Part shown: one piece after another, positions 2,817-5,061 of the stretch | Position numbering within the stretch: the stretch's first letter is position 1 | Layout: each line of letters begins with the position of its first letter | DNA from: a virus | Lineage: Duplodnaviria; Heunggongvirae; Uroviricota; Caudoviricetes | DNA length: 17,885 nucleotides | IMG/VR virus record: IMGVR_UViG_2671180349_000004 | Reading direction: 5' to 3' (one strand) | Notes under the pieces: generated by a model | What the model saw: the letters and a program-made list of their open reading frames with translations, nothing else | Told to the model about the DNA's origin: nothing | Database searches by the model: none | Position numbers and translations under genes: made by a program

Positions 2817-3776
2817 ATGAAAATTTGTATCGATGACGGCTCCACCAACATCAAGCTGGCATGGACTGAGAACGGCGAACGCCGCAACGCCATCAGCCCG
2901 AACAGCTTCAAGTCGGAATGGTCTGCGCCGTTCGGTGGCACGCAGCCCGCGAACTACATGCTTGATGGCGTGCGCTATGGTTTTGATCCGGTCAGCGATC
3001 GCTTTGTCCAGACGACCGACACGCAATACCAGTACAGCGATGTGAATGTCATTGCCATTCATCACGCGCTGGTCAAATCAGGCATCACACCACAGGAAGT
3101 GGATGTGGTTGTCACCCTGCCACTGAGCGAATATTTCGACACAAACGCACAGCCGGACATGGCCAACATCAACCGCAAAAAAGCAAACGTCATGCGCCCG
3201 GTGGCGTACCAGAACGGAAAAGCATTCACTATCCGTAACGTACGGGTTATGCCTGAATCCATTCCGGCTGGTTTTAAAGCACTGGCTGACATGAGTCCGT
3301 TTGAATCCCTGCTGATTGTGGATTTAGGCGGAACCACGCTGGATGTGGCAAAGGTTCAGGGACAACTGGCAGGTATCAGCCAGGTGTTTTGCGATCCACA
3401 CGTAGGCGTTTCCCTGATGGCCGATGCCGTACTGTCGGTGATGGCCACTAACGGTATGCGCACCAGTCACCACATCGCCAATACCATTATCGAACATCGC
3501 CATGATGAAGCCTGGCTGCGCCAGCACATCCACAATGACGCGCATTACGCCAGCCTGATGGCGGTTATTCGTGAAAAGGAAGAAACACTGAAACAACGCG
3601 TGATCCGCGCGCTGGCGGTTTTTTCGGGTTACGGGCGGGTGATGGTTGTCGGTGGCGGGGCGGAGATTGTGGCACCCGCTATCCGCGAAGCCTGCGGAGT
3701 TAATGCGACTTTCATCGCGGACGGAGTGCCACAATTTGCTCTGGTTAATGGGCTGTACGCAATGAACAAGGAGTAA
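2817..3776 (+). CDS. parM: ParM/StbA-family actin-fold ATPase (type II partition cytomotive protein)
   Basis: 319 aa; RBS AAGGAAAA at 2804-2811. N-terminus MKICIDDGSTNIKLAW and blocks YSDVNVIAIHHAL, KKANVMRPV, VRVMPESIPAG, LLIVDLGGTTLDV, VGVSLM, RVMVVGGGAE, LVNGLY align with plasmid R1 ParM (MLVFIDDGSTNIKLQW..., recalled from memory). Actin-fold phosphate-1 (DDGST), phosphate-2 (DLGGTT) and adenosine (VGGGA) motifs are intact. Confidence 0.9.
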   Translation: MKICIDDGSTNIKLAWTENGERRNAISPNSFKSEWSAPFGGTQPANYMLDGVRYGFDPVSDRFVQTTDTQYQYSDVNVIAIHHALVKSGITPQEVDVVVTLPLSEYFDTNAQPDMANINRKKANVMRPVAYQNGKAFTIRNVRVMPESIPAGFKALADMSPFESLLIVDLGGTTLDVAKVQGQLAGISQVFCDPHVGVSLMADAVLSVMATNGMRTSHHIANTIIEHRHDEAWLRQHIHNDAHYASLMAVIREKEETLKQRVIRALAVFSGYGRVMVVGGGAEIVAPAIREACGVNATFIADGVPQFALVNGLYAMNKE

Positions 3777-3780
3777 ACCA

Positions 3781-4092
3781 ATGACGACACCAACCAGAAG
3801 AATAAGTTTCTATCTGAAGCCAGCTGCCGTCAAGAACGAAGGAGAAGCATGCGCCTGGCTGGACAGCCTTACACCAGAAGCCCGCAAAAGCGGCCAACGC
3901 GTGGCTTTTCTGGCCGGGCTGGCACTTCTGAAGACGAATCCGGCAGAGGCTTACCGACTGGCCGCATGGGCTGATGATGAGATGTTACCTGTGACACAAA
4001 TCAGCTCAAAAAAGTTTGAAGCACAGTCTGCACCAGTGGCTAAGATAACCAGCCAGATGGCTGGGAATATCCGGGCGTTATTTCCTGAGTAA
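3781..4092 (+). CDS. parR: ParR/StbB-like partition adaptor (probable ribbon-helix-helix DNA-binding protein)
   Basis: 103 aa, starts 5 nt after the parM stop, with RBS AAGGAG at 3768-3773. ISFYLKP...LDSLTPEARKSGQRVAFLAGLAL resembles R1 ParR IAFKLNP...LDSIPQGERSRLNRAALTAGLAL (recalled). Size and position immediately downstream of parM fit a parMR operon. Confidence 0.75.
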   Translation: MTTPTRRISFYLKPAAVKNEGEACAWLDSLTPEARKSGQRVAFLAGLALLKTNPAEAYRLAAWADDEMLPVTQISSKKFEAQSAPVAKITSQMAGNIRALFPE

Positions 4093-4107
4093 AAGCATCT
4101 GCGCGAA

Positions 4108-4149
4108 AAATGCTCACGTTTATAGAGAAAATGCTCACGTTTATAGAGA
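4108..4149. repeat. Perfect tandem duplication of a 21-bp unit AAATGCTCACGTTTATAGAGA (2 copies)
   Basis: Read directly: 4108-4128 is identical to 4129-4149. Begins 16 bp after the parR stop. Confidence 0.95.
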
Positions 4150-4241
4150 CAGTATCATTCCATTTGGCACACTTACTTCAATAATCGATCTGTTAAACAA
4201 ATAGATTGTCTATTATCTATCGATTAAAACGATCAATTATC

Positions 4242-4269
4242 TTGACAGTAATGTGCCTTTTTGTAAGAT
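4242..4269 (+). promoter_or_regulatory. Candidate sigma70 promoter: -35 TTGACA (4242-4247), 16-bp spacer, -10 TAAGAT (4264-4269) preceded by TG
   Basis: Perfect -35 hexamer and a 4/6 match at -10, in an AT-rich block. The palindrome AATAGA-ttg-TCTATT at 4200-4214 lies about 30 bp upstream as a possible operator. Predicted transcription start near 4276-4278. Confidence 0.45.
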
Positions 4270-4276
4270 CGTTCGC

Positions 4277-4460
4277 ATTGTGAGCGACAAGATAATTGCG
4301 CGGCATTGTCCATGCAAAACGCCCCAATAGCAGCAACTATTGGTGCGTAAAACTCGGTCGGACTCACTTAACCTGATATGCGTGCCTTCCGAAGTAAATC
4401 AAAATGTGCGTCGTATATTTTATTGCTTACACGCACCTCTGTAAAGGCACGCATATTTTT
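4277..4460 (+). ncRNA. Candidate structured 5' leader or small RNA (about 185 nt) ending in a terminator-like stem plus U-tract
   Basis: Hairpin CCAATAG-cagcaa-CTATTGG at 4324-4343. A 13-bp perfect inverted repeat ATATGCGTGCCTT (4376-4388) / AAGGCACGCATAT (4444-4456) encloses a 55-nt segment with an inner GTGCGT/ACGCAC pairing (4406-4411 / 4431-4436) and is followed by TTTT (4457-4460). The RBS and start of the downstream ORF follow within 20 nt. Confidence 0.3.
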
Positions 4461-4477
4461 CCTATGAGGTAAATAAA

Positions 4478-4747
4478 GTGCGGGCTAAAACAGGTATTTG
4501 CAAGAACCCTCATCGTTATAATCCAACATTTCTGTCTCTCCCTGAATATCAAGGACAAGAAGGTCGGCACAAATGCGCTGCCTGTGCTTTTGAGCTAGGC
4601 ATAAAAGATGCGCTTGAAGGACGCGCTATGGCTCAGAATGATTTAGTTTTAGCTAACATTCCGTTTAGCCAGGCTGGAACTGTAAGGCACAGAGATGCCT
4701 ATGAAGCATATGTTCGTGGTTGGCGATTAATACACAGCAACAATTGA
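4478..4747 (+). CDS. Hypothetical small protein (89 aa), possible Cys/His metal-binding motif
   Basis: GTG start at 4478 with RBS GAGGT at 4466-4470. C8-x3-H12 ... H31-x-C33-x2-C36 arrangement. Followed 10 nt downstream by a strong intrinsic terminator. No family recognised from memory. Confidence 0.5.
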   Translation: MRAKTGICKNPHRYNPTFLSLPEYQGQEGRHKCAACAFELGIKDALEGRAMAQNDLVLANIPFSQAGTVRHRDAYEAYVRGWRLIHSNN

Positions 4748-4756
4748 TACTTTTGA

Positions 4757-4779
4757 AGCGCCGATAAGGCGCTTTTTTT
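4757..4779 (+). terminator. Rho-independent terminator: stem AGCGCC / GGCGCT, loop GATAA, then seven T
   Basis: Read directly: 4757-4762 pairs with 4768-4773, followed by a T-run to 4779. Lies 10 nt after the stop of the 89-aa ORF. Confidence 0.75.
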
Positions 4780-5061
4780 GTTTGCACGATAGTGCACAAG
4801 TTTGCACAATTTTTTTGAACGACTTTTTGTACTTCCGGCCCGCGTGGTGGCTGGATCCGTCAAGGATCCGTACGTGCACAAAAAAACGCGTTTTTTCTGC
4901 GCGCAGGTGACGGGGGAACAGCCCGCGTTTCAGGGGGTAAATAGCATTCCCTGAACGATGTCGCAGAGATACAACAGAATGGCCGTATTTCTCACGCTGA
5001 GCGTGAAAAATACGTGAGGGATTCTGGTTTGATGGGGTGAAAGGTAAGGCCGTCAAAATCG

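Follow-up and report, generated by a model that had tools for sequence, protein, structure and literature searches.

It is known in principle that convergent promoters and an antisense RNA can govern the accessory genes of prophages. In the IS10 RNA-IN/RNA-OUT system, the promoters pIN and pOUT stand face to face and pIN is Dam-sensitive; in the P22 sar-ant locus, sar overlaps the ribosome-binding site of ant, and in the c4-ant loci of P1/P7, c4 is processed from the sense transcript. Here we analysed an AT-rich block (positions 4150-4477) in a 17,885-nt stretch of phage DNA, IMG/VR record IMGVR_UViG_2671180349_000004, hereafter called the window. The block precedes an 89-aa open reading frame (ORF), and an earlier interpretation of the bare DNA (hereafter the sequence-only reading) had proposed it as a candidate small RNA, attenuator or RNA component of a toxin-antidote-like module. 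We propose that it is probably the self-contained control region of a mobile prophage cassette, in which a sense promoter, a folded leader and an opposing internal promoter making a short cis-antisense RNA would together set the expression of the ORF.

The locus shares with IS10 its convergent promoters, an mRNA accompanied by a predicted cis-antisense RNA of ~70-95 nt, and a GATC site over the sense -10 element. It differs in that the overlap falls in the middle of the leader and leaves the ribosome-binding site uncovered, in that the promoters lie ~150 bp apart as compared with ~36 bp in IS10, and in that no sequence or Rfam similarity connects the two. As in sar-ant and c4-ant, a short antisense RNA is predicted to arise from within the regulatory region of a prophage gene, and the same leader also occurs before a gene for a Bro-N (antirepressor-like) protein; however, neither geometry fits the window. 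The scan of Rfam that the sequence-only reading had recommended (Rfam 15, both strands, the window and six related loci) matched the leader neither to C4 nor to any other family, curated cis-regulatory RNAs included, at the gathering score or at E values up to 1. The type I toxin-antitoxin loci tisB/istR-1, zorO/orzO, ldr/rdl and hok/sok resemble the window in their long folded leader, occluded Shine-Dalgarno (SD) sequence and an antisense RNA (here predicted) that targets the leader far 5' of the start codon, whereas the window protein is not a membrane peptide and its homologues occur in non-toxin contexts. Finally, the morons of the P2 gpA-gpQ hotspot similarly carry their own promoter and terminator, have low GC, are bracketed by conserved backbone and are replaced by other cargo in sister phages, but lack the long conserved structured leader and internal opposing promoter seen here; the cargo of the window, in turn, is not a recognised defence gene.

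Opposing promoter sequences in a conserved, folded leader

Scans of genome and viral collections returned 160 loci. In enterobacterial and Gilliamella phages, the 250 nt 5' of the ORF are homologous across at least six groups. These are group A (window-like), group B (a second P2-like lineage, with ~60% protein identity), group G (Gilliamella), group P (lambdoid phages of Providencia and Proteus), group S (Salmonella, Enterobacter and relatives; one member is a P22-like phage with the cassette after cI) and group Y (Yersinia and Rahnella). In an alignment of 36 leaders from the six groups, the invariant or near-invariant columns were few: a GATC 5' of the -35 element, the TTGA and TAnnnT of the sense promoter, a few hairpin positions, and CTTTAC and TAnnnT, 17 nt apart, on the minus strand.

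The first promoter in this set is the sigma-70 sequence TTGACA-16-TAAGAT (4242..4269, plus strand; 10/12 consensus matches), whose predicted transcription start lies at ~4276-4277. The sequence-only reading had singled it out, and the invariant or near-invariant TTGA of its -35 and TAnnnT of its -10 across the 36 leaders bear that claim out. The second, listed by a consensus scan and missed by that reading, is located on the opposite strand within the leader: TTTACA (4445..4440)-17-TAAAAT (4422..4417), also with 10/12 consensus matches. The pattern TTTAC(A/T)-17-TAnnnT was present on the minus strand in 36/36 leaders, ~35-40 nt 5' of the start codon, and appeared in the alignment as invariant GTAAAG and A...TA columns at the exact 17-nt spacing. 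The consensus scan independently returned the face-to-face promoter pair in the window and in loci L001, L003 and L007, and found the antisense promoter in two further groups (Citrobacter, L037; Serratia, L062). The locus therefore has the arrangement that defines a cis-antisense system, an opposite-strand promoter, here a predicted one, inside the target transcript.

The predicted mRNA would open with a structured leader (4277..4477, plus strand) of ~200 nt up to the start codon, or 185 nt up to a U-tract. Its minimum free energy (MFE) in the window, -61 kcal/mol, was lower than that of 200/200 dinucleotide shuffles (z = -3.69; -3.2 in an independent recalculation). A long structured untranslated leader before the small ORF, as the sequence-only reading described it, is also a conserved property: homologous leaders were 165-226 nt long (165-202 nt in 35/36), and 12 representatives gave z-scores of -2.9 to -7.7. 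Single-sequence folds from all groups contained the same four elements, made of differing sequences, namely a 5'-terminal hairpin of the sense RNA, the GC-rich hairpin 1 (4319-4348), the variable hairpin 2, which contains the antisense -10 element, and a small hairpin occluding the SD sequence. No conserved leader peptide was detected.

Hairpin 1 (4319-4330 with 4337-4348) has a stem of 12 bp with one mismatch in the window copy, and is a fuller form of the hairpin that the sequence-only reading had drawn. RNAalifold on plain MAFFT alignments failed or gave weak results because the stems were out of register, and the arms of hairpin 1 were therefore anchored by hand; for the 5' and SD hairpins the anchored arms were not positionally homologous, and these were left out of the covariation counts. 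In hairpin 1, 88% of the cells were paired as compared with 59% in shuffles, compensatory cells numbered 74 versus 26 (0/500 shuffles as high), and the covariation score was 0.674, versus 0.159 in shuffled alignments and at most 0.113 in slid controls. The covariation check recommended along with the original proposal thus supports this stem.

The strand on which each hairpin folds was assessed with a strand-neutral stem finder, by counting the pairs that are wobble on one strand only. For hairpin 1 these counts were 11 on the plus strand and 44 on the minus strand, as compared with 52 and 14 for the 5' hairpin and 46 and 19 for the SD hairpin. The sequence following hairpin 1 is A-rich on the plus strand and T/C-rich on the minus strand. 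Based on the wobble asymmetry and the T-rich flank, hairpin 1 appears to work on the minus strand and not in the sense-strand role first given to it; in the window it is followed on that strand by TTTT, the complement of AAAA at 4315-4318. The homologous hairpin is labelled a minus-strand terminator by the terminator scanner in locus L012, and in the Citrobacter group (L037) it has a minus-strand T7 tail and contains a G·U pair on that strand only. Judging from these patterns, hairpin 1 is most likely the intrinsic terminator of the predicted antisense RNA.

The antisense promoter and the evidence for a terminator at hairpin 1 together predict a discrete minus-strand RNA of ~93-98 nt (4313..4410), running from ~7 nt past the minus-strand -10 element to the T-tract after hairpin 1. 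Predicted lengths are 93-96 nt in group A and 65-76 nt in 31/32 other leaders, with 137 nt in Y_L151. The first ~55 nt of such an RNA would be weakly structured, with the terminal hairpin after them, and its sequence matches the central part of the leader with perfect complementarity, taking in the 5' arm of a 13-bp helix discussed below.

The DNA on the 5' side of the leader is conserved as well. The palindrome AATAGA-ttg-TCTATT (4200-4214) is the core of a longer, imperfect 26-nt palindrome (4181-4206 with 4215-4240) that is rich in ATCGAT and GATC, has GATC sites at 4187-4190 and 4231-4234, and lies directly 5' of the -35 element. The block 4181-4240 is near-identical between groups A and B, despite an ORF identity of only ~60%, and is probably a protein-binding or UP-like region. 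In group A, an 11-nt perfect inverted repeat (CAATTATCTTG / CAAGATAATTG; 4234-4244 with 4288-4298) flanks the sense promoter; a transcript would include its second arm only, which makes it a feature of the DNA. Over the leaders as a whole, GATC was ~3.8-fold enriched and occurred at fixed positions: beside the sense -35 element in 34/36 leaders (4231-4234 in the window), over the sense -10 element in groups A and B and part of group S (4267-4270 in the window), and in hairpin 2 and the spacer of the antisense promoter in groups G, P, S and Y, outside the lineage of the window.

The leader is not tied to one gene. When viral contigs were searched for the motif of the S-type leader, 43 matches were obtained, 25 of which were followed by a homologue of the ORF; in 11/43, the complete leader stood before an unrelated protein of ~233 aa with a Bro-N domain (L185 8240-9202; also L172, L175, L179, L189, L195, L200, L203, L204 and L207). 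The other seven were left unassigned, with two contigs ending too soon and most of the rest probably being chance matches. Because the complete leader also precedes the unrelated Bro-N gene, we regard it as an autonomous regulatory module, and this placement weakens the case for autoregulation by the ORF product as well as for a dedicated toxin-antitoxin pair. Within the phage collection only one isolated phage carried the S-type leader, and the Bro-N variant was absent from the E. coli genomes.

We propose the following model for this module. The sigma-70 promoter at 4242-4269 would start an mRNA whose folded leader of ~200 nt tends to bury the ribosome-binding site. The opposing promoter (4445..4417), ~35 nt 5' of the start codon, would fire inside this leader and produce a cis-antisense RNA of ~95 nt ending at the GC-rich hairpin (4348..4319) and its T-tract. 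The antisense RNA, or convergent transcription itself, would then set the expression level of the small ORF, possibly through refolding of the leader, duplex cleavage or promoter interference, and Dam methylation may be an added input, as suggested by the conserved GATC sites that adjoin both promoters or fall inside them. That the block is regulatory at the RNA level is very probable, and the cis-antisense transcript is, from the conserved patterns, most likely the key RNA.

Several observations weigh against this model. The firing of both promoters, the RNA ends and the regulatory outcome are predictions from sequence. The match to the sense promoter is by itself not above chance (2 sites found versus 2.0 expected in shuffles), and both this promoter and hairpin 1 exceed chance by virtue of their conservation in distant relatives. 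In the covariation analysis, the arms of hairpin 1, anchored on a conserved C/G run, were chosen with a stem finder and had an artificial loop placed between them, a choice and joining that bias the count towards pairing, and sequences inside one group are not independent. The window copy carries a stem mismatch in hairpin 1, where a G-to-T change at 4344, missing from nearly all related copies, breaks one pair; the lineage also has only a short minus-strand T-tract after the hairpin (TTTT, then GCATGG), and neither in the window nor in L001 did the scanner call a terminator there. Taken by itself, the predicted antisense RNA shows no unusual stability (z = -1.8), and it leaves the ribosome-binding site uncovered, with no obvious route from there to altered translation.

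The cargo cassette, its protein and its prophage setting

The window belongs to a P2-like (Peduoviridae, Xuanwuvirus-like) E. coli prophage. Its genes run from the replication endonuclease gpA (68-2740) through the actin-like ParM (2817-3776) and a ParR/StbB-like protein (3781-4092) to the AT-rich block, the 89-aa ORF and a terminator, after which the portal and terminase genes lie on the minus strand. The interval between gpA and the portal gene (gpA-gpQ) is a published hotspot of variability and defence in P2, and a partition system occupies it in about a quarter of P2-like phages (PMC9122126).

Comparison with sister phages places the block within a cassette. In the ParMR-bearing sisters L005 and L006, which carry other cargo, homology to the window stops at 4088-4092 and resumes at 4768-4783, and sisters with the same gpA-ParM-ParR backbone have different genes 3' of parR. 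Since homology breaks and resumes at its ends, we consider the block, the ORF and the terminator to be one cargo cassette of 690 bp (4093..4782, plus strand), inserted between parR and the cos-proximal backbone. The cassette has a GC fraction of ~0.40, as compared with ~0.55 in the flanking backbone, and is closed by a predicted intrinsic terminator (4755..4775, plus strand) with an 8-bp stem, of which 5 are GC pairs, followed by a T-run. It thus has the features by which a moron is recognised: a promoter-like sequence of its own, at 4242-4269 and conserved in the 36 leaders, a terminator of its own, insertion in a conserved backbone, absence from close relatives and deviant GC. The same ORF and leader occur together in lambdoid and P22-like phages, as well as in Gilliamella, Providencia, Yersinia and Rahnella. 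These comparisons of sequence indicate that the block was acquired horizontally, in agreement with the origin that the sequence-only reading had deduced from low GC.

The 850 bp of the window that contain the block were found in ~170/5,426 complete E. coli genomes at 95-99% identity, chromosomal every time, and a plasmid database contained 0 copies of the block. A 21-bp tandem duplication (AAAATGCTCACGTTTATAGAG x2; 4107..4148) is private to the window copy and one IMG/VR contig, L097, which is identical to the window with the duplication included; for the E. coli copies listed, the alignment covers 830 of 851 query bases and the unit is present once, and the duplication is probably without function.

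The ORF (4478-4747, plus strand) begins with a GTG at 4478, 3' of an SD sequence GAGG (4466-4469), and stops at 4745-4747. Its 89-aa product matched PHROG 3941, a family of no assigned function, and was unmatched in Pfam, NCBIfam and PADLOC. It belongs to a widespread, unnamed family of ~85-90 aa with conserved C8, H12, C33 and C36 and a SQAGxVRH motif; an exhaustive search yielded 172 relatives, none of them named, while a word-indexed search had returned near-identical proteins only. An AlphaFold2 model of high confidence (predicted local distance difference test score, pLDDT, 90.5) had no fold match in the PDB or BFVD. The model predicts a soluble helical protein, and the Cys/His set suggests metal binding.

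Homologues lacking this leader were found in metagenome-assembled genomes (MAGs) of Firmicutes, Bacteroidota and Spirochaetes. Their upstream neighbours were DNA methyltransferases in 10/10 cases, with Dam-like D12 enzymes in 7/10, and their downstream neighbours were DpnII (GATC) endonucleases in 5/10. In L040 (1805-4912), as in L043, L059, L065 and L073, the homologue lies between a Dam-like D12 methyltransferase and DpnII, and a second methyltransferase sometimes comes after these genes. In other proteins the small domain is fused to HNH_2, NOV_C, DndB/DGQHR or WYL domains (P0020, P0047, P0065, P0076, P0084, P0100 and P0108), all of which are typical of defence or DNA-modification proteins. 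From this gene neighbourhood, GATC restriction-modification cassettes appear to include the small protein as a part that has gone unrecognised. The DpnII context of the family and the GATC enrichment of the leader may be linked, a connection that is suggestive only. Searches of the literature on the protein accession, on Xuanwuvirus and on DpnII-associated small ORFs found nothing on this module.

Several annotations touch this locus in its relatives. The homologous ORF of E. coli ECL27829 (L007 4281-4559) has no RefSeq annotation, and a second small ORF of 95 aa follows it in this group B cassette (L007 4626-4913), with no family match and no counterpart in the window. The record of phage BIS08P22 (L004 2665-2901) has a 78-aa 'hypothetical protein' where the conserved promoter and the leader's first two hairpins lie; this is probably not a gene.

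The surrounding backbone has features of its own. A complete ParM and ParR/StbB pair (2817-4092) directly 3' of the replication gene is found here in a P2-like prophage, and the ParR lineage of the window occurs in only seven plasmid records, among them a circular P2-like element of 34 kb; this suggests occasional plasmid-like maintenance of the ParMR prophage. Just past the cassette, at 4780-4813, the motifs GTTTGCAC and TGCACAAGTT are repeated in backbone DNA common to the sister phages, near the cos-proximal region.

Alternative explanations

The promoter (4242-4269), the short palindrome (4200-4214), the hairpin, a 13-bp repeat, the U-tract, the ribosome-binding site and the 89-aa ORF listed by the sequence-only reading are all present where it placed them, and what they mean can be read in other ways. 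That reading took as its central element the 13-bp perfect long-range inverted repeat (4376-4388 with 4444-4456, plus strand), which encloses an inner hairpin (~4407-4412 with 4431-4436) and has TTTTT directly 3' of it (4457-4461). A sense transcript from 4277 would end at this stem and U-tract (~4460), giving a small RNA of ~185 nt or an attenuator that gates read-through into the ORF. The perfect helix with its T-run would suit this role, as would the strong structure of the leader and the partial duplications (ATGCGTGCC / ATGTGCGTCG; ACACGCAC / GGCACGCAT) that permit alternative pairings. The helix is, however, limited to the near-clonal group A: in group B, the nearest diverged lineage, its site has a 27-nt deletion and other pairings, and in the remaining groups a different hairpin 2 stands there. 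The arms are invariant in group A, and as they never vary there and the repeat is absent elsewhere, covariation cannot inform on it; its paired arms are thus neither conserved at homologous loci nor backed by covariation, and for this element the lack of conserved arms is the very outcome that the sequence-only reading had named as refuting. In other groups the counterpart of the T-run in the alignment is a hairpin loop, the T-rich one of the SD-occluding hairpin, and not a terminator tail; the 55-nt interior is atypical for a terminator, the scanner made no call, and the leader has neither a conserved leader peptide nor an Rfam match to a riboswitch or attenuator. An attenuator would require a conserved terminator hairpin and U-tract before the gene, with an antiterminator, and in these leaders the stem and U5 are confined to group A. 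We therefore find an attenuator or sense small RNA improbable; of the riboregulation first suggested, control at the RNA level is likely, whereas the 185-nt sense RNA closed by the 13-bp stem, restricted as this is to one lineage, does not hold up. The helix may instead be this lineage's means of occluding the ribosome-binding site, as in the MFE fold ACCU at 4371-4374 pairs with the SD sequence and lengthens it. It is similarly doubtful that the locus is a type I toxin-antitoxin system, with the 89-aa protein as a toxin silenced by the folded leader and a cis-antisense antitoxin. Such a system would account for the long structured 5' untranslated region, the occluded SD sequence, a short antisense RNA from and against the leader, and the location in a prophage accessory locus. 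Type I toxins are small toxic proteins, usually hydrophobic membrane peptides, while the protein here is predicted to be soluble and helical with conserved Cys/His; in addition, its leaderless homologues in other phyla sit between a DNA methyltransferase and DpnII, which is hard to square with a free-standing toxin, the same leader precedes the unrelated Bro-N protein, and PADLOC gives no match. A toxin role for the ORF, as implied by a toxin-antidote-like module, is thus without support. A type III (ToxIN-like) RNA antitoxin is excluded, because no repeat array is present: as already observed when the block was first described, tandem RNA repeats are lacking, and the sole tandem repeat is the two-copy 21-bp duplication 5' of the promoter, absent from most copies.

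A further possibility is that the block acts on the DNA level only, as a set of operators and Dam-methylated GATC sites to which a repressor, or the ORF product itself, would bind, the minus-strand promoter being a by-product. This would fit the palindrome block 4181-4240, in which groups A and B differ less than they do in the ORF, the 11-nt inverted repeat that brackets the sense promoter, the enriched and position-fixed GATC sites, and the ties of the ORF family to GATC restriction-modification systems. Yet the invariant positions of the minus-strand element are the most informative positions of a sigma-70 promoter, kept at 17-nt spacing in 36/36 leaders while the intervening bases drift, and the stems covary without retaining their sequence and with strand-specific wobble, which points to RNA and not to a protein-binding palindrome. 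The occurrence of the module before a different gene also runs contrary to autoregulation by the ORF product, and we rate control by DNA sites alone as improbable too. The GATC sites also admit a more elaborate scheme, somewhat speculative and in our judgement unlikely, in which the leader is a methylation-reading two-promoter switch, the replication or Dam state picking the winning promoter, and the gene encodes a small Cys/His protein that is built into DpnII-type cassettes and acts on GATC sites. If this were true, the protein could be, for example, a restriction-modification controller, or an anti-restriction or epigenetic factor captured by temperate phages. Finally, the block adjoins parR on its 3' side, is AT-rich and repeat-rich, and has a promoter among its repeats, as in the parC of R1, in which a promoter is embedded among the repeats; it could on these grounds be the parC centromere of the adjacent ParM/ParR system. 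Sister phages with 83-85% identical ParR are without the block, however, it is missing from the ParMR carriers L005 and L006, and it moves with the 89-aa ORF into ParMR-less phages; parC identity was consequently rejected, and we give it hardly any weight. Better candidates lie 5' of parM, where two palindromes ACGGGATT-N4-AATCCCGT, at 2690-2709 (the 3' end of gpA) and 2763-2782 (the gpA-parM spacer), are 97% conserved in all five ParMR phages compared and are plausibly, from their sequence and position, the parC centromere or a ParR operator.

Significance for phage regulation

While the use of convergent promoters and an antisense RNA to control an accessory gene of a prophage has precedents, the module proposed here is undescribed, lies outside Rfam and is unannotated in RefSeq and GenBank. 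Phages of several genera share it, P2-like, P22-like and lambdoid ones alike, and it can be swapped before different genes. If confirmed, it would represent a regulatory RNA family new to phage biology and, at the same time, a portable cassette for tight control. It also offers a handle on an uncharacterised protein family of GATC restriction-modification systems, located here in the P2 hotspot where anti-phage genes cluster.

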